A DNA stretch of 64,000 nt, taken from the NCBI RefSeq assembly GCF_030013595.1, contig NZ_CP122768.1. One strand, given 5' to 3'. This stretch comes from Escherichia coli. Its GTDB lineage: Bacteria > Pseudomonadota > Gammaproteobacteria > Enterobacterales > Enterobacteriaceae. The notes beneath the pieces are model-generated. The model had not been told where the DNA came from. It was given only the letters and a program-made list of their open reading frames with translations, and did no database searches. Positions within the stretch are counted from its first letter, which is position 1. Every line of letters begins with the position of its first letter. The position numbers and the translations under genes are program-made. Below, in pieces: positions 1,085 to 56,823 of the stretch.

Positions 1085-1550
1085 GCGTAAAACGCCTTAT
1101 CCATCCTACGGTTCTGTGCTCGGGACCTGTAGGCCTGATAAGACGCGTCAGCGTCGCATCAGGCACTGAATGCCGGATGCGGCGTGAACGCCTTATCCGG
1201 CCTACGGTTCAGGGCTTGGATCTTGTAGGCCCGATAAGACGCGCCAGCGTCGCATCAGGCACTGAATGCCGGATGCGGCGTAAAACGCCTTATCCGGCCT
1301 ACGGTTCTGTGCTCGGGTCTTGTAGGCCTGATAAGACGCGCCAGCGTCGCATCAGGCACTGAATGCCGGATGCGGCGTGAACGCCTTATCCATCCTACGG
1401 TTCTGTGCTCGGGACCTGTAGGCCTGATAAGACGCGTCAGCGTCGCATCAGGCACTGAATGCCGGATGCGGCGTGAACGCCTTATCCGGCCTACGGTTCT
1501 GTGCTCGGGTCTTGTAGGCCTGATAAGACGCGGCCAGCGTCGCATCAGGC
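1085..1550. repeat. BIME/REP array: about five pairs of imperfect palindromic REP units with roughly 97-bp periodicity
   Basis: Repeated motifs gcctgataagacgcg..cagcgtcgcatcaggc and gccggatgcggcgtgaacgccttatccggcctacg seen directly; classic E. coli REP consensus. Confidence 0.85.
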
Positions 1551-5671: not shown

Positions 5672-6667
5672 ATGAACGATAACGTTTTGCTCATAGGAGC
5701 TTCCGGATTCGTAGGAACCCGACTACTTGAAACGGCAATTGCTGACTTTAATATCAAGAACCTGGACAAACAGCAGAGCCACTTTTATCCAGAAATCACA
5801 CAGATTGGTGATGTTCGTGATCAACAGGCACTCGACCAGGCGTTAGCCGGTTTTGACACTGTTGTGCTACTGGCAGCGGAACACCGCGATGACGTCAGCC
5901 CTACTTCTCTCTATTATGATGTCAACGTTCAGGGTACCCGCAATGTGCTGGCGGCCATGGAAAAAAATGGCGTTAAAAATATCATCTTTACCAGTTCCGT
6001 TGCTGTTTATGGTTTGAACAAACACAACCCTGACGAAAACCATCCACACGACCCTTTCAACCACTACGGCAAAAGTAAGTGGCAGGCAGAGGAAGTGCTG
6101 CGTGAATGGTATAACAAAGCACCAACAGAACGTTCATTAACCATCATCCGTCCTACCGTTATCTTCGGTGAACGGAACCGCGGTAACGTCTATAACTTGC
6201 TGAAACAGATCGCTGGCGGCAAGTTTATGATGGTGGGCGCAGGGACTAACTATAAGTCCATGGCTTATGTTGGAAACATTGTTGAGTTTATCAAGTACAA
6301 ACTGAAGAATGTTGCCGCAGGTTATGAGGTTTATAACTACGTTGATAAGCCAGACCTGAACATGAACCAGTTGGTTGCTGAAGTTGAACAAAGCCTGAAC
6401 AAAAAGATCCCTTCTATGCACTTGCCTTACCCACTAGGAATGCTGGGGGGCTATTGTTTTGATATCCTGAGCAAAATTACGGGCAAAAAATACGCTGTCA
6501 GCTCAGTGCGCGTGAAAAAATTCTGCGCAACAACACAGTTTGACGCAACGAAAGTGCATTCTTCAGGTTTTGTGGCACCGTATACGCTGTCGCAAGGTCT
6601 GGATCGAACTCTGCAGTATGAATTCGTTCATGCCAAAAAAGACGACATAACGTTTGTTTCTGAGTAA
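5672..6667 (+). CDS. gne: NAD-dependent sugar epimerase, probable UDP-GlcNAc/UDP-Glc 4-epimerase (Gne-like)
   Basis: 331-aa ORF with GASGFVGT Rossmann motif and YxxxK catalytic motif; sits between wcaM and galF as gne does in several E. coli serogroups. Confidence 0.65.
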   Translation: MNDNVLLIGASGFVGTRLLETAIADFNIKNLDKQQSHFYPEITQIGDVRDQQALDQALAGFDTVVLLAAEHRDDVSPTSLYYDVNVQGTRNVLAAMEKNGVKNIIFTSSVAVYGLNKHNPDENHPHDPFNHYGKSKWQAEEVLREWYNKAPTERSLTIIRPTVIFGERNRGNVYNLLKQIAGGKFMMVGAGTNYKSMAYVGNIVEFIKYKLKNVAAGYEVYNYVDKPDLNMNQLVAEVEQSLNKKIPSMHLPYPLGMLGGYCFDILSKITGKKYAVSSVRVKKFCATTQFDATKVHSSGFVAPYTLSQGLDRTLQYEFVHAKKDDITFVSE

Positions 6668-9261: not shown

Positions 9262-10163
9262 TGAATATCCTCCTTTTCGGCAAAACAGGGCAGGTAGGTT
9301 GGGAACTACAGCGTGCTTTGGCACCTTTAGGTAATTTGATTGCTCTTGATGTTCACTCCACTGATTATTGTGGTGATTTTAGTAATCCTGAAGGTGTAGC
9401 TGAAACAGTCAAAAGAATTCGACCTGATGTTATTGTTAATGCTGCGGCTCACACCGCAGTAGATAAGGCTGAGTCAGAACCCGAATTTGCACAATTACTC
9501 AATGCGACTAGTGTTGAATCAATTGCAAAAGCGGCTAATGAAGTTGGGGCTTGGGTAATTCATTACTCAACTGACTACGTATTCCCTGGAAATGGCGACA
9601 CGCCATGGCTGGAGACGGATGCAACCGCACCGCTAAATGTTTACGGTGAAACCAAGTTAGCCGGAGAAAAAGCGTTACAGGAACATTGCGCGAAGCATCT
9701 TATTTTCCGTACCAGCTGGGTATACGCAGGTAAAGGAAATAACTTCGCCAAAACGATGTTGCGTCTGGCAAAAGAGCGCGAAGAACTGGCTGTGATAAAT
9801 GATCAATTTGGTGCGCCAACAGGTGCTGAGCTGCTGGCTGATTGTACGGCACATGCTATTCGTGTGGCACTGAATAAACCGGAAGTCGCAGGTTTGTACC
9901 ATCTGGTAGCCAGTGGTACCACAACCTGGCACGATTATGCTGCGCTGGTTTTTGAAGAGGCGCGCAAAGCAGGTATTCCCCTTGCACTCAACAAGCTCAA
10001 CGCAGTACCAACAACAGCCTATCCTACACCAGCTCGTCGTCCACATAACTCTCGCCTTAATACAGAAAAATTTCAGCAGAACTTTGCGCTTGTCTTGCCT
10101 GACTGGCAGGTTGGTGTGAAACGAATGCTCAACGAATTAATTACGACTACAGCAATTAAATAG
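9261..10163 (+). CDS. rfbD: dTDP-4-dehydrorhamnose reductase
   Basis: [23 protein letters not shown]; start overlaps rfbB stop. Confidence 0.9.
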   Translation: MNILLFGKTGQVGWELQRALAPLGNLIALDVHSTDYCGDFSNPEGVAETVKRIRPDVIVNAAAHTAVDKAESEPEFAQLLNATSVESIAKAANEVGAWVIHYSTDYVFPGNGDTPWLETDATAPLNVYGETKLAGEKALQEHCAKHLIFRTSWVYAGKGNNFAKTMLRLAKEREELAVINDQFGAPTGAELLADCTAHAIRVALNKPEVAGLYHLVASGTTTWHDYAALVFEEARKAGIPLALNKLNAVPTTAYPTPARRPHNSRLNTEKFQQNFALVLPDWQVGVKRMLNELITTTAIK

Positions 10164-47244: not shown

Positions 47245-50200
47245 TCAGAAGGTCACATTCAGTGTGGCCTGACCGTTATACCCTTCAGCGCTGCTGCCGC
47301 TGACGCTGTGGGCATAACCGGCCTGAACGCCCAGGGTGATATTTTCCCGGACACGGGCTTCCAGTCCGGCCTGCAGGTCCAGTGATGTGCCATTCTGTGA
47401 GGGAGAGAACGTCATCCCGCTGCCTGCAGTGGAAGTCCCCACACGCATATCTCCCCGGGAGCTGAAGGTGCGGATAACAGAAGGCTGTACCCACCAGTTC
47501 ACCGGTAATTCACTCACACTGTGTTTTGCACTGTCACGCAGGGGGGCACGGGATGAGGTGCCTTCGCCAAAGGTCATATCGTTGTGGCTGCCCAGACGGA
47601 AACCGGCACGCACATGTTGTGCACTGCCATGCCCGAACTTCACATAACCGGCGTTGTCCTTACCGTCATCCAGGGAAAGTCCCTGCCAGGTATACTGCAG
47701 TTGTGGCTCCAGCATCAGGTTGTCAGTGATACTGAAGGGCAGACCGGTTTCCAGTGAGCCCAGCCAGCCCCAGCCCCGGGCGCGGAAGTCGTTATTGTCC
47801 GATGACGCTTTCATGCTGTGGCGGGTTCCCTGTGCCACAATGTCAGCCCACAGGCCGGAGGACGTGTGTACCAGATTCAGGTATCCGCCCAGGCTGCCGG
47901 CATCATCCCGGACCGTGCCGGCACGGGAGCCGTCATCATCCTTAACATCAACGGAAGAATGGCCAGCAGCACCATATACCCCCGCGGTCACAGACATACC
48001 GGCAACCTCTGTTCTCATCAGGTCACCCTCCAGACGGACGAATCCATAGCTGCCGCTGCTTTCCGGCGTGGCCCCACGGGCAATACCGCCATTGTTATCG
48101 TGACCGAGATGACCGCCCTGAATGCTGAGACGGACGCTGTTGTTTTCACCATTTACACCGGTCTGATGGCTGCGGGAGCCTGCCACAATCCGGTCATAGT
48201 CCATTGCCTGTGTCAGCATGGAGGCATACAGGGGGACTTCTGCACGATAAGCATTTTCACTGCGCAGATACCAGCTCTCATCACTGTCCCGGTTGAGGGA
48301 GTAGTTAAAGGCACCGGCCTGCAGCCTGTTCCCCTGGACAAAGGCCCCTTCCTCCGTGGTGGCACCGTTAATGGCTTCAACCACCTGAATACCCTTACCG
48401 CTGGTCGCCAGCCCCGACGCACTGTTGCCGGCGTTCACCAGGTTCAGGATGGTTTTTCCGGTTGCCCTGCCACCGTCAATGACCAGTCTGTCAGCATTGT
48501 TCTGTGCCATATCCGGGCGTACACGCAGGCTGATGGTGCCATTCTGCCCGTTCAGGTTTTTCACTTTCAGGGTTGCCGGTACGAACTTCCCTGTGCGGGT
48601 GGAGGTGAAATGAATCTGTCCGGCATGGCTGAGGTCATCCACCACCGACTGCACCGTGGCGTTATCGGGGATATTCCAGGTGGCACCGGAGGCGAGAGTG
48701 ACATTCGTGGGGTCAATGGCACCGTTCAGCACAGTGCTGCCGGTCAGCTTCAGGGCTGTACCGCGCTGAGCAATGACATCCGTGGTGACGGTACTGTCGT
48801 TCAGCGTCAGCGTGCCTTCATTCAGGTTGACGGCTTTCTGGGTGAGTGTGGTGTTGCTGACAGTGAGTGTGCCACTTCCTGATTTTTCCACGCTGCCGTT
48901 ACCGGTGAGAGAGCCTCCCTGCAGGAGCGCATCGCCTTCACGGATGGTCAGGGTATCGTTGTTCACCGTCTTCCCGGAAAGGGTAAGTATGGCGCCGTTA
49001 TTCAGCGTGGTGGTGCCCGCCAGTGTGCCGCCCCTGGCGGTGAACAGTCCGCCATTTACCGTGGTATCCGTGGCCGTATCACCGGCGTTCAGCGTGAATG
49101 AACTGCCTTTTTCCAGCATCAGGGCATCCGCCTGACCGCCTCCGATACTGAATGCCTTTCCGTCGCTCCGGGTACCACTGACAGCGGCACCGGAATCGGC
49201 CAGCAGTACACCGCCATTTCCCATGGATACGGTGGTGGCGGTGCCACCGTTGCGGACATCCAGTGTTCCGCCATCATCCACGCGGGTATTAGTGGCTGTG
49301 TGTCCGGTCAGCACATCCAGGCGTCCGCCATTTTCCAGTACGACATTATCAGCTTTACCCTCCACAACAGAGAATGCTCCCAGGCGGTTTATGCCGGTAA
49401 CGGTTGCAGCCGTACTGGTAACCAGTGCGCCGCCCTGCTTCAGGGTGACATTCGTGGCTGTACCACCGGCGTCCACCTGCAGTCTGCCCTTCTGATTAAC
49501 GGTGGTATTCCCGGCCACACCCCCGTTTTTGACAATCTGCCAGCCGTCACTGTTCACAACAGTGTCAGACGCTGTACCGCCGTTGTGCACATACTGGTAT
49601 CCCCCATTCAGCGTGGTATCCAGTGCGTGACCATGTACAGTCTGGTCGCCGCCGGCATAAACCACAGTGGTATTTGCCGTTCCTTCAGCTCTCACAATCT
49701 GGCGACCGTTTTTATTGATGGTTGTGCGTACGGCATCCCCGCGAACAAACTGCCCGGTATCACCGTTTTCTGCATCCGGTCCCCCTTCCGCCCCGGTATT
49801 AACAACGGTATCCGTTGCCACTGTACCGGGCTTGACGACCTGCCAGCCCTTATCATTAATGACGGTTCCTGTGGCTATCGCCCCCTCATGCATCCACTGT
49901 TCGCCACCATTCAGCGTGGTGTTCACTGCCCGTCCCTGAAGGCTCTGTCCGCCTCCGGCACTGATAACCGTGTCTGAGACACTTCCACCGGGGTTCACTC
50001 TCTGAAGACCACCACTGGTGACAGTCGTTTTGTTGGCTGTTCCGCCATCCTGTACCCATTGCCCGCCGGTATTGGCCTCGTTATCCGGCCCATACTCCAG
50101 CCCGGTACTGATGGTCATTCCGTTGGTCGTACCGAAGACAATCTGGTTGTCATGATTTGCCAGTGTTCCGCCGTTCACGGTTTCTCCCGGGTGCACAACG

Positions 50201-50364
50201 ATGTCAGCAGCCAGCACCGGGAGTGACGTGACTGCGGCAAGAGACAGTGCAACCGCCACACCGCCACGTTTACCCCGTGCGCGGGCCAGTTCGGAGGCAA
50301 CCACGAAAGCGCCCGTAATGTGATTCCATACCAGCCTGTAGCAGGTATTCAGATGTCGTTTCAT
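47245..50364 (-). CDS. flu: Antigen 43 self-associating autotransporter adhesin
   Basis: 1039 aa from MKRHLNTCYRLVWNH; repetitive beta-helix passenger and C-terminal beta-barrel ending in F. Confidence 0.95.
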   Translation of the reverse strand: MKRHLNTCYRLVWNHITGAFVVASELARARGKRGGVAVALSLAAVTSLPVLAADIVVHPGETVNGGTLANHDNQIVFGTTNGMTISTGLEYGPDNEANTGGQWVQDGGTANKTTVTSGGLQRVNPGGSVSDTVISAGGGQSLQGRAVNTTLNGGEQWMHEGAIATGTVINDKGWQVVKPGTVATDTVVNTGAEGGPDAENGDTGQFVRGDAVRTTINKNGRQIVRAEGTANTTVVYAGGDQTVHGHALDTTLNGGYQYVHNGGTASDTVVNSDGWQIVKNGGVAGNTTVNQKGRLQVDAGGTATNVTLKQGGALVTSTAATVTGINRLGAFSVVEGKADNVVLENGGRLDVLTGHTATNTRVDDGGTLDVRNGGTATTVSMGNGGVLLADSGAAVSGTRSDGKAFSIGGGQADALMLEKGSSFTLNAGDTATDTTVNGGLFTARGGTLAGTTTLNNGAILTLSGKTVNNDTLTIREGDALLQGGSLTGNGSVEKSGSGTLTVSNTTLTQKAVNLNEGTLTLNDSTVTTDVIAQRGTALKLTGSTVLNGAIDPTNVTLASGATWNIPDNATVQSVVDDLSHAGQIHFTSTRTGKFVPATLKVKNLNGQNGTISLRVRPDMAQNNADRLVIDGGRATGKTILNLVNAGNSASGLATSGKGIQVVEAINGATTEEGAFVQGNRLQAGAFNYSLNRDSDESWYLRSENAYRAEVPLYASMLTQAMDYDRIVAGSRSHQTGVNGENNSVRLSIQGGHLGHDNNGGIARGATPESSGSYGFVRLEGDLMRTEVAGMSVTAGVYGAAGHSSVDVKDDDGSRAGTVRDDAGSLGGYLNLVHTSSGLWADIVAQGTRHSMKASSDNNDFRARGWGWLGSLETGLPFSITDNLMLEPQLQYTWQGLSLDDGKDNAGYVKFGHGSAQHVRAGFRLGSHNDMTFGEGTSSRAPLRDSAKHSVSELPVNWWVQPSVIRTFSSRGDMRVGTSTAGSGMTFSPSQNGTSLDLQAGLEARVRENITLGVQAGYAHSVSGSSAEGYNGQATLNVTF

Positions 50365-50544
50365 CAGCTTTTCCTTAGATTGAGGGTGAATAAAAAAGCC
50401 GGTACCCACAAACGTGGATACCGGCAGGTAAAGGGTTACAGTGCCGGAGGTCCGGCTGTGGGAGTTTCTGAATTGTGGTTCTGTTGTTCCCTGAATGTCT
50501 TTCTGTACGTATCTGTGCATGTTACTGACAAAGGTTATTATTAG

Positions 50545-50592
50545 CTTATCGATCGATATAAACGATCGATAAAATAGATATCGATCGTTTTA
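50545..50592 (-). promoter_or_regulatory. agn43 (flu) phase-variation switch: three GATC Dam sites within the OxyR-binding region
   Basis: GATC at 50551-50554, 50564-50567 and 50583-50586, about 190-220 bp upstream of the flu ATG. Confidence 0.8.
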
Positions 50593-50691
50593 TTCTATTA
50601 TTGAGCTATTGCACGGACAAGAGAGACAGTAACGAAAACAGTGCTTTTGTGAGCAGACTCAGAGTCAGGGAGGGCATCAGTCACGACAGGT

Positions 50692-51564
50692 TCAGAAGAA
50701 AATCCAGTTCCATACCGCACGGGCAACAGAGACCACCGTGTCACGAACAGCGCGCAGGGCCGTACGGACAACAGAGGCAACACAGACGCTCTCCGCTGTG
50801 TCAAATATCCGGTCCACCGCACCGGTAAACTGTTCACGGGCCTGAGAGCGGACAGATTCCGTGCGCAGCTCGTCCTGCAGTCGGGTCATCAGGGGACTGG
50901 CGGCATGGTCGGGAAGCGCTGTCATGAGCGCACTGACCAGCGTATCCAGTTCCCAGCCGGTGCGGGCCGATACGGCCACAACCGGATGTACGGGCCGGAA
51001 CAGACGGAATACCGCCTCCGTTTTTTCGCGAATATTCTGTGCCTGTGCAGGAGAAGGCTGAATACCGGCCATATCCCATTCATGGCAGGGCTCCGTTTTG
51101 TCGGCCTGCGTCACCACAAACAGTACCCGCTGATGTCCCCGGTGCAGGATGTGTCGCCAGAAATACTCATCCACAGACAGGGCACGGTCATCGGCTTTAA
51201 TCAGCCACAGTACCAGGTCAAGTTCAGGCAGAATGTCACGGTACAGGGCCTCATACTCTGCATCCCTGTCCCGGCTCTCGCCCACCCCGGGCAGGTCAGT
51301 GATAACCATGCTGTGACCGTGGCCACTCAGACGGAAGCGCCGTACTTCCCGGGTGCCGGCGTGAACATCACTGACCGGGGTGACCTCCCCCTGAAACAGT
51401 GCATTACAGAGTGAGGATTTACCGGCCCCGCTTTTACCCATAATGCCAATCACGGGTTCGTGACGGGTGAGTTTGCGCAGATGTTCCAGGATGTGACGGG
51501 AAAGCGAGTAAGGCAGGGAGGAGAGCGGTTTTTCAATTGCCTCAATGGCATCAGACGGATTCAT
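50692..51564 (-). CDS. yeeP: GTPase YeeP/YkfA family (apparently intact)
   Basis: P-loop GKSGAGKSS; start taken at MNPSDAIEAIEKPL. Confidence 0.75.
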   Translation of the reverse strand: MNPSDAIEAIEKPLSSLPYSLSRHILEHLRKLTRHEPVIGIMGKSGAGKSSLCNALFQGEVTPVSDVHAGTREVRRFRLSGHGHSMVITDLPGVGESRDRDAEYEALYRDILPELDLVLWLIKADDRALSVDEYFWRHILHRGHQRVLFVVTQADKTEPCHEWDMAGIQPSPAQAQNIREKTEAVFRLFRPVHPVVAVSARTGWELDTLVSALMTALPDHAASPLMTRLQDELRTESVRSQAREQFTGAVDRIFDTAESVCVASVVRTALRAVRDTVVSVARAVWNWIFF

Positions 51565-52792
51565 ACATGTATTCCCGGTGAAAAAAGACAAAACCCCGCG
51601 CACCGGAAAGGTGGCGGGGGATTCACGGAGATAATATCTGTCTGAAATTGTTTTTAATCGATGGGATTGTTGCGTATTAACATGAAGGAGATCAGGACTT
51701 ATCCGTTACTGGGTGATCTCCTTCCATGAAAATACGCCGTTATTGTTAAACAGCAGGCTGATTTCTCCGTAAAGGGGAAAATATTTATCGGCTGCATGAT
51801 TATCAGGTGTGTCTGTGTTTACTGCTGTGAGTATTTTTCAGTGTATTGTGGGGGAGATGTCAGTGGGAGATATTAAATTTACATTTATAATTATCTTACT
51901 TCTTCTGTGTGTTTTTTATAAGAGTGCACACGTAATGATATCTGTTGATACCATGTGGTTAAGTGTTTCCCTTCCTGGTCATGCGTAATGATTAAATGCT
52001 TTTGTGACACCATTCTTCCGGTCTGAATATTTATCCCGTTCTTTTTTATTTGTGCAGTGATACTGTCGGAAGAGAATTCAGTAATGTGAGGTGTCCTGGT
52101 CAGGATAATATCTGCTGAGATATTATTAGTTGAGTGTGTTTTTACTGAGCAAAAGCTGGCTTTTAATTCCTGTACTGAAACACTGTCGCTCGTCCGGGGT
52201 TAACTGAAACTGGATGATGATGTAAAATGAAGGCTGTTTTTGTGTTTGTCGAAGAAGTGTTATTTTAATCCATTCTCATCATTGGCTGGCGATTATACAG
52301 AAGTATTTGAAGAAAAAATGGTGCATTTTATCTGTGTCAGCAGGGAAGAAGTATTTTATTGATGTATCAGTATTAAATGGTTTTTGTTATTTATAAAAAT
52401 GTCATCCTGTCCATAGAATATTGTACTCAGCATTCAGTGCAGGAACTGTAGTCTTCTTTATTTTATTCTTCTTCAGGAGGGGGGATTCCTGAAGGCGTTA
52501 TTCCCGGTGTTCTGTTTATGATTCATCCCGGCAGGAAACCGGTATCTGCAATACCCGGGATGATGCTTTTTGTTCGTACGTGGTTGTGTAAAATTTGAAT
52601 AGTGGATGTGCTCTGAAGGGAAGGAGGGGACACACAGATTCATTTTGTCTTTCTTCAGCAGCAAAACACACTGTGGTTATTATTTAACCATTAAATCAAC
52701 AAAAATTTTTACCTCATATTGATTTGACTGCTATTTTTGCTATTAATAGCCAGAATTGCAGTGCTTTTATATCTGTGTGTAGTGAGGTTACT

Positions 52793-54277
52793 ATGTCATT
52801 CGGTCAGCCTTGTGATGAGTTTCCCCTGAGTTCGCTGCCTCCACTCATTCGTGATGCCGTTATTGAAGCTCAGCAAATTACGCAGGCTCCCCTTGGGCTT
52901 GTGGCAGCGTCTGCCCTGGGCGCTGTTTCACTTGTCTGCCAGAATCTGATTGATGTCTGCAGACTGAATACACTGCGGGGGCCGGTCTCTCTTTTTTTCC
53001 TGACGCTTGCCGAGTCCGGAGAACGAAAAACCGCAGTGGACAAATTATTAATGAAGCCCCTGTACCAGCAGGAGATGCAGTTATATTCCAGATACAAAAG
53101 TGAACTGGCTGTCTGGAAAAACAAGGAAGAGCTTTTAAAGGCTCAGAAAAAAGCATTGTTGTCAAAACTGAATAAAGAACTCCGCAAAGGCGCGGATGAG
53201 TCAGAAACCCTCAGACAACTGGAAGTACTTCAGAAAAACAGTGCGGAAGAACCTGTGAGGTATAAATTCATTTTTAATGATGCCACGACTGCGGCAATTA
53301 AGAATCAGCTTTGTGGTAAATGGCGTTCAGTGGGTATTATGTCAGATGAAGCCGGTATTATATTTGATGGATATACCCTGTCTGAGTTGCCTTTTATTAA
53401 CAAAATGTGGGATGGCTCTGTATTGTCTGTGGACAGAAAGAATGAACCCGAACAGATGATTGAAAATGCCAGAATGACGTTATCCCTCATGGTGCAACCC
53501 GGTCTTTTTGACCGATATATGGAGCGAAAAGGTTCTGTTGCCAGGGACAGTGGTTTTCTTGCCCGTTGTCTTATCAGTAAACCTGCAACCACGCAGGGGA
53601 AACGCTTTATTAACGGAGCTGTGATTCCGGGAGGATCATTAACGGCATTTCATGAACGATTAATGGAACTGGCCAGAGGCAGTATTGAAAAATCCAGTGA
53701 GGATGAACGGTATTGTCTGCATTTTTCGCCTGAAGCGCAAAAAATATTTATTGAGCACTATAATGTTCTGGAGCAGGATTTATCCCCTTCCGGACCCTTA
53801 AGCCCGTTTCGGGGACATGTTTCAAAAAAAACAGAAAACATTGCAAGAATTGCAGCGTTATTTCAGTATTTCAGCTATGGTGAAGGGAAAATCTCTGCCG
53901 ATATCATGACGTCTGCTGTCGTAATAAGTTCGTGGTACACAGATGAATATAAAAAATTATTTGCGTTACCTGATGAATCTGAACTGCAGCAGAAGGACGC
54001 CGAGGAGCTGTTCGACTGGCTCATTGAGGAGTGCCGCGGAGAATGCCCACCCCGTGTCAGGAAAAATTATATTCTCCAGTGTGGCCCGGGTCGGTTCAGA
54101 AACAGGAAAAAACTGAACGCATTGCTGAACATTCTTGAATCTCAGTTCAGGCTTTCTGTCGTGCCGGAAGGAAAAACCATGTATGTTCTGCTTCCCCAGA
54201 TAGCCAGTTTAAAGTTGTCTGATGTCTCTGGTATTTTTACCTCGGGTTATCACTACAATAAGCTGAGAGCGAAGTAA
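52793..54277 (+). CDS. DUF3987-domain protein (YfjI-like)
   Basis: ORF start at MSFGQPCDEF with GAGG RBS; family assignment from sequence resemblance only. Confidence 0.6.
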   Translation: MSFGQPCDEFPLSSLPPLIRDAVIEAQQITQAPLGLVAASALGAVSLVCQNLIDVCRLNTLRGPVSLFFLTLAESGERKTAVDKLLMKPLYQQEMQLYSRYKSELAVWKNKEELLKAQKKALLSKLNKELRKGADESETLRQLEVLQKNSAEEPVRYKFIFNDATTAAIKNQLCGKWRSVGIMSDEAGIIFDGYTLSELPFINKMWDGSVLSVDRKNEPEQMIENARMTLSLMVQPGLFDRYMERKGSVARDSGFLARCLISKPATTQGKRFINGAVIPGGSLTAFHERLMELARGSIEKSSEDERYCLHFSPEAQKIFIEHYNVLEQDLSPSGPLSPFRGHVSKKTENIARIAALFQYFSYGEGKISADIMTSAVVISSWYTDEYKKLFALPDESELQQKDAEELFDWLIEECRGECPPRVRKNYILQCGPGRFRNRKKLNALLNILESQFRLSVVPEGKTMYVLLPQIASLKLSDVSGIFTSGYHYNKLRAK

Positions 54278-54598
54278 CCGGTGAGCAGTTTTTCTCCATT
54301 ATGCTTCAGACTTAGATGATTGATTATTATGGGGATTTCATCACCGATATTCAGATGTATGAATATCGGTGATGAACTAAAGCTCAGGAGCTGCGTGGTG
54401 GTGATGAATCAACAGGCATATAACTGATACCCGCCGGTCAGAAGTTCCAGCCTGCGACTTTCCTGTCTGCGTGCCCGCAGTCCGGCGTTCAGGTGCAGCG
54501 TGTGACAGAACGCACGGAGAGCGAAACGGCAGGCAGACAGGCCGTTCAGTCAGCCCTGGCACCCTGCCCGGATACCAGCTTCCCTGAAACAACTGGCA

Positions 54599-55207
54599 TC
54601 AGGTGCGCTTATCGTCAACCGTTGTGCGGTATGCCAGGAGCACGTACTGATCCATCAGATCCGTCAGTGCTGCGCTCTGCTTCTGACGGTTGATGATCCA
54701 TTCCTCCAGCTCTTTTTCTGATTTCCGTTTCAGATTCTCCGTCCAGTCGTCAAGGCAGTTTCCGGTCATTAAATCAAGCCAGCAAAGCCAGACCAGTTTG
54801 AGGCGCAACTCCGTGCCACCAAACTGACGGAAGAGGCTGATCAGTTTATTTGCCAGCGAACGCTGCCTCAGACGTTCACATTCAGACAGGAGAATGCCTT
54901 CCAGCATCGGATGATGAACCAGCAGATGTTCACTGGTGCATAAATTCACTATCAGATCATCATCCAGGGGCGGCGTGGTCCGTTTGTCCGGACCATAAAT
55001 CAGCCGGTGCAGACTCTGGGGTACGATGGCAATCTCCGGTTTTTCACCATTGAATGACACCCACCCGGGCGTCAGATTATGGAAGTAGTAGATATTCGGA
55101 TGACACACGCCCCAGGATACGGCGTGCCGGGTGAAGCCGGTCAGCCATTTCTGGTAGCTTTCGTGGAGCAGCTCGTAACGGGTCTGATACTGTGGTTTCA
55201 TTTTCAT
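54599..55207 (-). CDS. Hypothetical island protein (about 202 aa)
   Basis: ORF with GAGGAA RBS before ATG-AAA-ATG; co-directional with and downstream of alpA. Confidence 0.5.
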   Translation of the reverse strand: MKMKPQYQTRYELLHESYQKWLTGFTRHAVSWGVCHPNIYYFHNLTPGWVSFNGEKPEIAIVPQSLHRLIYGPDKRTTPPLDDDLIVNLCTSEHLLVHHPMLEGILLSECERLRQRSLANKLISLFRQFGGTELRLKLVWLCWLDLMTGNCLDDWTENLKRKSEKELEEWIINRQKQSAALTDLMDQYVLLAYRTTVDDKRT

Positions 55208-55287
55208 ATTCCTCACGGGGGATAACAGGCAGCAGAACGCCGCCGGCAGGCCGGAGACTGCGTCTGTTGCAGATGAACGGTTAAGAA

Positions 55288-55494
55288 TTACGGACGGGAC
55301 TGTGCAATACGCGCCTGCAGCCAGGCTTCCACTTCGCTTTTCAGCCATCGGGAGCTGCGGCCCATTTTGATGGGCGCAGGAAAGTCACCATCCTTGATGA
55401 GTTTGTAAAACCACTTATCGGTCAGGCCGGTCAGTTGAGTGATAAATGCCATGTCGACCATCTGGTCATCCATCAGTGAAACTGGGGTGAGCAT
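55288..55494 (-). CDS. alpA: AlpA-family transcriptional regulator (prophage CP4-57-type regulator)
   Basis: HTH pattern FITQLTGLTDKWFYKLIKDGDFPAPIKMGRSSRWLKSEVEAWL. Confidence 0.75.
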   Translation of the reverse strand: MLTPVSLMDDQMVDMAFITQLTGLTDKWFYKLIKDGDFPAPIKMGRSSRWLKSEVEAWLQARIAQSRP

Positions 55495-56823
55495 GAGAAT
55501 GTTCCTCCGGATGTTGTTAAACCAGCCGGTGTGGTCATGAAAACAACGCACCACCTTCACCGGCATAACAACCGGGGAGAAACGTAAAAAATAATCGGGA
55601 ATGTGACCGCCAGGAGATAAACGGGGAGGTTACGGTGGCTGAGCCGTACCGGTATGCCGGGTGGTTGTTACGAAACGATGCTTCCGCACGCGCGCGCGAT
55701 AAAGAAGGGATGATTTTCGTGAGGAAGAGGGGAAAACTGGCGTTCTGATAATTGCAGAGTTATTTACGGGGCGGTTACGATGGGGCAGACCGTGTCCGGT
55801 GGGCAGGCGACAGGTATCACCGATGGGATAAGACTGTCTGATTGGTATTATAAATATATAAGAGAGATCAAACACATGAGATCAAATACATGAGTTCATA
55901 TATGTGAAATAAACACGGTGAGTGTGATCAGTGGGCATGATGAGAACGCAGTAGCAACAGACTGCGCTATCCCTGATAGCTGGCGTATAACCCGCGTATA
56001 TAAAACGTATCTGCAATGTACGTGAACAGAGTGCATTAAGCATCCGTCTGAGCGGTAAACATATCCGACCTGGTGAGTGACAGTCTGAGAGACCGGTTAA
56101 GTGGTGGCTCGGGAGTAATGAGTTTGGGGTGGGTACCAGAATGCCAGTCTGGCGGTATGCTGACAGTATCACGTTAATTGCAGCATAAAGTGATGAGAGG
56201 CTAATGGAAGTTAAAACCAAAGCAGTTCCGTCGTTGTTCATCCCGGGAGACGCTGGAAAAAGTGATTTCCCACACGCGTTATAAACTTACCTCTGCGGAA
56301 CTGGAAGCCTTCAACTCTGTGGTTGATCACTGGCTGGCAGAACTGACAATGAACAAGCTTTACGATCGTGTTCCCGCTTCAGTCTGGAAATATGTCATCT
56401 GAGCGTTCGGTAATCACAACTGCATCGCACCAGGTGTTATCCGCTTTGTGATTCTTATTGGCTCTTCTCAGGTTATTAAAAGCTGAATATGTTCCTGTTG
56501 TCGGGAACCAGGATAATACCGGGAACGTTAAGCGGTATAGCGACAACAAAGAATTCGAAATCAAAAGGGAATGGTGCCGGAGGCGTGGGCGGTAATGGGC
56601 TGATTTTCAGGTATTACCGGCTTACAGCGTGTGGTTGATATTGAGGGGCTGTGAGTTTCGCGTATTTGTCAGAAACCCAGACGAGTTTTCCTGTATGGGA
56701 CGAAATAAGGCAGCGGCAATACCTGGAAAAATTTAATATGGTATGAAGGAGAACCTGTCGGTTACGCTTAATATACCCGGTACACTGTCAGCTCAGGGGA
56801 TACATGAACCGTTATCTCACCAG

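Follow-up and report, generated by a model that had tools for sequence, protein, structure and literature searches.

What lies in the 1.2 kb that separate two divergent genes of a genomic island, if no gene can be seen there? The question is raised by a 64,000-nucleotide stretch of Escherichia coli DNA (contig NZ_CP122768.1), called the window below. Its right third is an intact CP4-44-type island next to cobU. Within this island, a yeeP-type MMR_HSR1 GTPase gene (50692-51564, minus strand) and the gene of a YfjI/DUF3987 protein (52793-54277, plus strand; Pfam DUF3987, E=1.3e-95) point away from each other, and the true gap between them is window 51565-52792, or 1228 bp. The original prediction, made from the letters alone, placed an AT-rich stretch without a credible open reading frame (ORF) at 51605-52790. 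Its left edge has to be moved to 51565, because the GTPase ORF had been extended to an upstream GTG at 51603. On balance we consider it probable that the gap is a non-coding divergent control region of the intact island, composed of three zones: a promoter-terminator cassette of the GTPase gene, a drifting AT-rich middle and a probable yfjI promoter.

The gap holds no gene

The G+C content of 51605-52790 is 0.377, compared with 0.486 for the whole window and 0.56-0.59 for the adjacent GTPase and Ag43 DNA. A lower value is reached in only 88 of 1257 equal-sized windows, all within the O-antigen cluster. A/T tracts of at least 4 nucleotides (nt) number 27, against 17.3 +/- 3.6 expected from composition, so the predicted AT-richness with many such tracts is borne out. 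In addition, the plus strand of 51600-52800 carries a G+T excess of 0.197, the strongest in the 64 kb window.

The longest start-to-stop ORFs of the gap encode 63 amino acids (aa) on the minus strand and 59 aa on the plus strand. The longest stop-free run has 102 codons (minus strand), a length also reached by 14% of shuffles (p=0.14). Together with the flanking yeeP-type and DUF3987 genes, these statistics confirm a stretch of about 1.2 kb without a credible ORF. The annotation of the NCBI Prokaryotic Genome Annotation Pipeline (PGAP) agrees, with the same gene pair and an empty gap in every E. coli record inspected. In Pfam and PHROGs, none of the ten longest stop-free translations has a match with E below 0.03. 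The 102-aa fragment, searched against 5.8 billion clusters, retrieves only E. coli ORFs of at most 111 aa, which lack a Pfam domain and are mostly labelled partial, and an exhaustive phmmer search over 1.84 billion representatives returns the same five E. coli ORFs only.

Comparison between genomes leads to the same answer. Of 5426 complete E. coli genomes, 1857 contain the gap over at least 80% of its length, and the median number of matching places in a genome is two. The locus exists in three diverged lineages, namely that of the window and those represented by L002 (~88%) and L003 (~79-82%). No ORF of at least 19 codons is intact in all three, and the indels between them mostly have lengths that are not multiples of 3. 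Purifying selection is not detected: gap identity between lineages (0.76-0.88; pairwise 0.876, 0.814 and 0.762) is not above the 0.84-0.89 found at four-fold degenerate sites of the flanking genes. Thus the body of the gap diverges at least as quickly as synonymous sites do. A sliding-window identity profile follows the same pattern, and the GTPase proteins of the three lineages are 97-98% identical.

The gap is not a gene, and no relic of one can be recognised in it. The homology search for a conserved gene came back negative, so the gene-free claim stands. The further suggestion that a decayed gene might hide in the body of the gap is not supported, since the Pfam, PHROGs, protein and tblastn searches are empty and the evolution looks neutral. 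Nor is a hidden small RNA found there, as judged from Rfam matches and conserved structure. Rfam 15, run over 49000-56000 at E<=1, reports nothing in the gap and only the IS102/IsrC RNA outside it. A sliding RNAalifold scan against column-shuffled controls gives a signal at the two gap ends only and none in the core.

A conserved promoter-terminator cassette precedes the GTPase gene

The description as anonymous AT-rich DNA suits the body of the gap; it fails for the leftmost ~95 nt (51565-51657), which are a highly conserved promoter-terminator cassette. This GTPase-proximal segment is 95-100% conserved between the lineages. Of 5426 E. coli genomes, 4249 have it, at 9354 places in total and independent of the upstream sequence, and it is also conserved in other Enterobacterales. 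We aligned 21 leaders (K-12 ykfA and yfjP, strain GF4-3 and IMG/VR contigs) whose GTPases share 48-60% aa identity. Their common architecture begins with a -35-like hexamer (TTGAAA, TTCCAA or TTAAAA), a conserved 15-nt spacer (AAAnAATTTCAGAyAkA) and a near-invariant TATnAT. An invariant TGA follows ~6 nt past TATnAT, and then a GC-rich hairpin, a U-run, a ribosome-binding site and the ATG.

By its sequence, the upstream part of the cassette is a sigma-70 promoter, TTAAAA-15-TATTAT. Holoenzyme binding has been reported for the copies of the K-12 paralogues: Table 2 of Shimada et al. 2014 lists RpoD-holoenzyme sites from SELEX (systematic evolution of ligands by exponential enrichment) in the perR-ykfA and rnlB-yfjP spacers as 'TTGAAA-15-TATCAT' (PMC3946193), which coincides exactly with the aligned promoter block. 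Judging from the spacing, transcription would start near 51623-51625. The conserved promoter spacer is a possible regulator-binding element. The pattern TTCAGAYAKATATYATC has a single occurrence in the window, at 51630-51646 on the minus strand; in the loci checked it is located 5' of the GTPase gene.

The downstream part is characterized by its hairpin. Hairpins of unrelated sequence, each with a U-run, are found at the same position in most paralogues; their sequences differ completely between clades and the pairing is kept. The two most distant leaders examined (L053 and that of Yersinia, L067) have no clear GC-rich hairpin and U-run. In a covariance-model alignment 95.5% of the cells are paired, and 8 of the 12 pairs have changed on both sides. 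None of 500 shuffles reaches the observed pairing, and controls with slid positions stay at or below 51%. Furthermore, the K-12-type covariance model matches window 51559-51652 (minus strand) at 30 bits. Structurally, the leader hairpin and U-run are an intrinsic terminator, which would be expected to act as such in vivo. The hairpin lies ~5-20 nt after the predicted start in most leaders, so the default product should be a terminated RNA of ~40 nt. No other RNA product is predicted for the gap.

The promoter of the cassette is already catalogued in K-12. The leader terminator appears to be undescribed: we found no description of it or of its distribution in Rfam and literature searches, and Rfam gives no match at the K-12 paralogue leaders. 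Entries for ykfA, yfjP and yeeP were not found in the accessible part of the K-12 3'-end tables. A long-range helix between the Shine-Dalgarno and an anti-Shine-Dalgarno sequence, enclosing the terminator, was also considered, since single folds made it look attractive. It was dropped, as self and cross duplexes reach -9.1 and -6.9 kcal/mol, respectively, and several leaders pair weakly.

The middle of the gap drifts and receives insertions

Between the cassette and the yfjI-proximal end, the gap evolves at a neutral rate and accepts foreign pieces. A palindromic hairpin element of ~69 nt is inserted near the cassette, and L003 has an empty site at this position. Copies of ~66-69 nt (L028:2501-2564; L029:2501-2567; L033:1501-1559) occur 3' of cdtC on plasmids of the pVir68 type, next to a PerC/IbrAB island, and immediately behind eaaC in phage P-EibC, whose annotation calls the element 'stem_loop'. 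By appearance it is a small, dispersed and perhaps mobile element that resembles a terminator. In plasmid and phage collections the matches to the gap are limited to this element, plus a few megabase-scale records that resemble chromosomal sequence filed as plasmids. A different 71-nt hairpin insertion, GAATCGATCACGGTTTGG/CCAAACCGTGATCGAAT, is present in L002 (~6380-6450, equivalent to window ~51984), and in L025:3567-6100 an IS66 insertion truncates the gap. The spacer thus behaves as a permissive landing site for insertions.

Recombination between island copies is also visible, with L003 nearly identical to the window over the last ~270 alignment columns. The gap has no tandem repeats, and no k-mer is over-represented relative to dinucleotide shuffles. 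Two candidate elements were rejected. TATCTG occurs six times on the plus strand; as a set of iterons it fails multiple testing, and half of the sites are not conserved. A plus-strand terminator at 52524-52580 has a stem that is broken without compensation in L002.

The yfjI-proximal end

The segment ~52719-52792 holds a probable yfjI promoter, as read from the sequence, with an overlapping palindrome. A Shine-Dalgarno sequence follows before the YfjI start codon (Table 1).

Possible silencing by H-NS and Hha

The original prediction proposed an H-NS-bound silencing or promoter region of a horizontally acquired island. The promoter and the acquired island are recovered. The region from ~40 kb to 62 kb of the window has 99.3-99.6% identity to 'region 2' of enteroaggregative E. 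coli (EAEC) 042 (NC_017626.1), and the gap itself is 99.5% identical to NC_017626.1 2332990-2334218. In EAEC 042 the GTPase gene EC042_2241 is up 4.8-fold in an hns mutant and 6.2-fold in an hha-null mutant, and the Ag43 gene EC042_2242 is up 3.9-fold and 3.1-fold, respectively; every listed duplicated gene of the region is derepressed in the mutants (PMC6480617). These values are transferred to the window by the 99.5% gap identity and bear on the neighbouring genes, not on the spacer itself. An Hha paralogue is encoded in the island, and a link between such paralogues and the control of Ag43 has been reported (PMC4864382). In related islands of Klebsiella and Yersinia, the divergent intergenic regions are AT-rich as well (G+C content 0.33-0.41). 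Silencing of the region by H-NS/Hha is indirectly supported, and H-NS would presumably occupy the gap DNA.

Alternative explanations

Could the gap be the remnant of a gene that has decayed? Other islands encode a fast-evolving family of 304-383 aa proteins immediately 5' of the GTPase cassette, with the gene on the strand of the GTPase gene. This hypothetical gene takes the exact position of the gap in BL21, E. coli strain 165, Klebsiella and Yersinia ruckeri; its stop codon abuts the cassette, and its size (915-1152 bp) is near that of the gap. The four proteins are only distant homologues (pairwise blastp E 1e-4 to 1e-26), so decay could erase similarity quickly. A codon-like remnant is seen at the GTPase-proximal edge, where L003 reads CAA ATC GAT TCA AAA TAA and the gene of the 383-aa protein ends in CAA ATC GAT TCC AGA TAA, and the 102-codon stop-free run is on the matching minus strand. 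However, the length of that run is within chance, and phmmer with its translation finds no family member. The check for decayed homologs that the original prediction proposed, here tblastn of all four family members against the three lineages of the gap, yields no match with E below 0.3. Moreover, DNA similarity ends ~25 nt beyond the cassette, which resembles a recombination junction rather than gradual decay. We therefore regard a decayed copy of this gene as rather unlikely; replacement at the junction is the more likely origin of the spacer, as far as the alignments tell. A shorter product, the 59-aa ORF at 51809-51988 (plus strand) or its 43-aa ATG-initiated version, might be a small hydrophobic peptide of the type I toxin kind, as it has a transmembrane-like run FTFIIILLLLCVFY. 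In both L002 and L003, however, a frameshift or stop codon interrupts the frame, and the product has no family match in Pfam or PHROGs; we give this proposal almost no credence.

Two other explanations assign the AT-rich DNA a role in replication or transcription. DUF3987 proteins act as 5'-3' helicases in the replication of mobile elements (PMC11724360, PMC5862659), and the gap directly adjoins such a helicase gene, so it might serve as its replication origin. The gap, however, has no iterons, tandem repeats or over-represented k-mers, contains one DnaA box and no integration host factor (IHF) site, is depleted of GATC (found only inside the hairpin element) and drifts neutrally. A genome contig scan via YfjI, the cross-genus comparison of the gap, yields only YfjI homologues of ~50% identity (16 loci, mostly from other genera), which stand in an int-alpA-yfjI order with no such gap. 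With no repeats or IHF site, a single DnaA box and gap-less homologues, the origin idea is not supported and is very improbable. Alternatively, much of the gap might be transcribed as a long yfjI 5' leader or a plus-strand non-coding RNA, and the G+T skew would then reflect transcription. The strength of this skew and substitution asymmetries consistent with a strand-specific process speak for it, as do several plus-strand sigma-70-like sites, one of which (52390-52419) is inside the best-conserved core block. These promoter-like sites are not enriched, however (5 against 4.0 +/- 1.8 in shuffles). The core has no conserved structure, diverges at the neutral rate with frequent indels, and its hairpin with T-run at 52524-52580 is the one that is broken in L002. 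A long transcript of this kind appears distinctly unlikely to us.

Proposed function of the region

We return to the reading of the gap as a three-zone control region. The first zone (51565-51657, minus strand) would be a portable expression cassette for the operon of the yeeP/ykfA/yfjP-type GTPase. Its start site would be ~5 nt before a strong intrinsic terminator, and most transcripts would by default stop after ~40 nt. Expression of the GTPase gene would then need read-through of the terminator or an antitermination factor. The second zone (~52719-52792) would provide the yfjI promoter with its overlapping palindrome. The third zone (51658-52718, ~1 kb) is AT-rich, has no detectable sequence constraint and accumulates indels, small hairpin elements and insertion sequences. 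Because of its base composition, it would most likely act only as an H-NS/Hha binding platform that keeps both promoters low.

Several observations weigh against this reading. The promoter spacer of 15 bp is suboptimal, and the -35 hexamer is weak in the window. The high-affinity H-NS motif TCGATAAATT is not enriched in the gap, with two matches that have 2 mismatches each; the A-tracts are without helical phasing, and AA/TT dinucleotides show no helical periodicity. The rate comparison is only approximate because of the recombination mosaicism between island copies. Furthermore, ~1.2 kb of apparently unconstrained DNA persists in three lineages that are 12-24% diverged, despite the deletion bias of bacteria. 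The G+T skew, finally, seems to be maintained by asymmetric substitution: three-lineage parsimony counts 45/288 A>G changes against 33/420 T>C, and 25/257 G>T against 7/168 C>A. A strand-specific process that is no part of the three-zone reading, for instance transcription, could lie behind this asymmetry; other conceivable causes are single-strandedness and a selection that disfavours C in a plus-strand RNA.

Our verdict is that the gap is an ordinary xenogeneic intergenic spacer, in which the leader cassette is the one modestly interesting part. For annotation, the 1.2 kb hole, which roughly every third complete E. coli genome carries and often in multiple copies, is no missed gene, and pipelines rightly leave it empty. 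The promoter-terminator cassette would explain why GTPase island operons are normally silent. Terminator read-through would offer a simple handle on the switching-on of cryptic CP4-type islands with Ag43 adhesins and CbtA toxins.

Feature coordinates and island setting

Table 1. Features of the gap and of its surroundings. Positions are those of the window unless a locus is named.
Feature	Position	Strand	Remark
-35-like hexamer TTAAAA	51652-51657	-	aligns with TTGAAA of K-12 ykfA and yfjP
15-nt promoter spacer ACAATTTCAGACAGA, core TTCAGAyAkA	51637-51651	-	near-invariant columns in 21 leaders
-10 hexamer TATTAT	51631-51636	-	TATnAT near-invariant across 21 leaders
Intrinsic terminator (by structure)	51581-51620	-	scan and fold
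Terminator stem CCCCCGCCACC / GGTGCGCGGGG	51620-51610 and 51604-51594	-	loop 51609-51605
Terminator U-run UUUUGUCUUUUUU	51593-51581	-	directly 3' of stem
Shine-Dalgarno GGGA	51576-51573	-	GTPase gene
GTPase ATG	51564-51562	-	start codon
Palindromic hairpin element, ~69 nt, inserted in gap	51669-51737		empty site in L003; fold -30 kcal/mol, z=-6.1
AT-rich, G+T-skewed core	51738-52718		gene, RNA and repeats not detected; rate equal to that of synonymous sites or higher
Candidate yfjI promoter TTGATT(52719-52724)-17-TATTAA(52742-52747)	within 52719-52792	+	read from sequence; not reported by promoter scan
Imperfect palindrome overlapping candidate yfjI promoter	52727-52762		local alifold z about -3.4
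Shine-Dalgarno GTGAGG	52783-52788	+	before YfjI ATG 52793
Ag43	47245-50520	-	local gene order
IS102/IsrC small RNA, full length (RF00124)	50385-50588	-	Rfam 253.5 bits
304-383 aa family members	L020:4044-4961; L021:4044-5195; L066:5284-6198; L067:4526-5539		upstream of GTPase cassette

The IsrC RNA lies between the GTPase gene and Ag43, an arrangement that is the same as in K-12 CP4-44, an island of which K-12 has a truncated copy only. Beyond the YfjI gene follow a 200-aa hypothetical gene and a gene of an AlpA-family helix-turn-helix (HTH) protein, both on the minus strand, with the Hha paralogue further right. The last ~25-40 codons of YfjI (window 54150-54277) are hypervariable between lineages: mean pairwise DNA identity is 0.59-0.69 at the 3' end of the gene and 0.93-0.99 elsewhere in it. 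The 200-aa protein (54599-55201, minus strand; also L066:7001-7600 and L067:7001-7594) belongs to a large Enterobacterales family. It has no Pfam domain and no structural match, as searched with an AlphaFold2 model of pLDDT 70. In Klebsiella and Yersinia ruckeri, defence cargo (BREX, Dnd) comes after the AlpA and 200-aa genes, which as a pair may therefore border a hotspot of defence genes.

In the islands that carry the gene of the 304-383 aa protein at the gap position, an AT-rich region of 480-500 bp separates this gene from the divergent genes of AlpA and the 200-aa protein. Two members of this protein family were scanned and gave no Pfam or NCBIfam match. The C-terminal segment shared within the family may be a DNA-binding module. 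The family is a candidate regulator of the cassette.

Two observations were made elsewhere in the 64 kb. At window 1171-1454, a single ~190-bp wcaK-wzxC intergenic segment of E. coli 042 matches three overlapping positions 96 bp apart in BLAST, which indicates extra tandem copies of a ~96-bp repeat in the window strain. The region ~7.8-15.9 kb, between galF and gnd, has the lowest G+C content (~0.27 at 12.5-13.2 kb), a strong GC skew at 10.5-11.2 kb and no similarity to strain 042. This fits an O-antigen gene cluster of a different serotype.

Comparison with known systems

The gap shares several properties with the H-NS/Hha-silenced island DNA of EAEC 042 'region 2' (PMC6480617, PMC4864382), namely low G+C content, the position between divergent operons, an Hha paralogue and a 3-6 fold derepression of the flanks. 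The published work is about the genes and not the spacer, and the gap differs from a typical target in its lack of a high-affinity H-NS motif and of phased A-tracts. The 69-nt element resembles the small dispersed palindromic or terminator-like stem-loops of enterobacterial accessory DNA, as a discrete insert that is also found 3' of the unrelated accessory genes cdtC and eaaC. It was matched to none of the named repeat families here, and its mobility would follow from one comparison of a filled with an empty site.

For the cassette, the constitutive promoters of K-12 ykfA and yfjPQ from Genomic SELEX (PMC3946193) are direct counterparts. They have the same distance from the start codon of a paralogous GTPase gene, the TATnAT, the 15-bp spacer and a hairpin with U-run downstream. 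They differ in their hexamers (TTGAAA/TATCAT in K-12, TTAAAA/TATTAT in the window) and in the hairpin, which is unrelated in sequence (ACGGCAGAACC... in K-12, CCCCCGCCACC... in the window). The SELEX paper is on the K-12 promoters and leaves the leader terminator unmentioned.

Cassettes with a promoter-proximal terminator are also known under the control of Q-type antiterminators, as in lambda PR'-tR' with Q and in Pseudomonas aeruginosa PalpB-tB with AlpA (PMC7969949, PMC9371919). The AlpA of the island was considered as an antiterminator of the P. aeruginosa type and rejected, being a 68-aa PF05930 HTH protein with no detectable similarity to the 21Q-like AlpA. A cognate Q-like antiterminator was not found nearby among the two proteins compared, the island AlpA and the 200-aa protein, of which the latter matches no Q-like structure. 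The -10-like pause element of Q-type systems is not consistent in the GTPase leaders: GAACAT is present in the K-12 type and absent from the window type, which has TGAATCC. One may speculate, though we consider it unlikely, that the GTPase leader, with its conserved promoter, promoter spacer and terminator, is a dedicated antitermination switch of Q-like logic that works with a new factor. Such a switch would operate in most E. coli and in many other Enterobacterales. It would gate the leftward arm of CP4-type islands from the GTPase gene, possibly into the Ag43, DUF932, antirestriction, RadC and CbtA/CbeA genes, and the adjoining ~1 kb of AT-rich DNA would be retained as a nucleation site for H-NS/Hha, by which the off state is set. 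The likeness to the Q and AlpA systems is an analogy only, and it lies in two features. In lambda PR'-tR'/Q and PalpB-tB/AlpA, as in the GTPase cassette, a promoter is followed within tens of nt by an intrinsic terminator upstream of a long operon; and the Q-binding element (QBE) and AlpA-binding element (ABE) lie between -35 and -10, the same interval that is conserved in the GTPase cassette.

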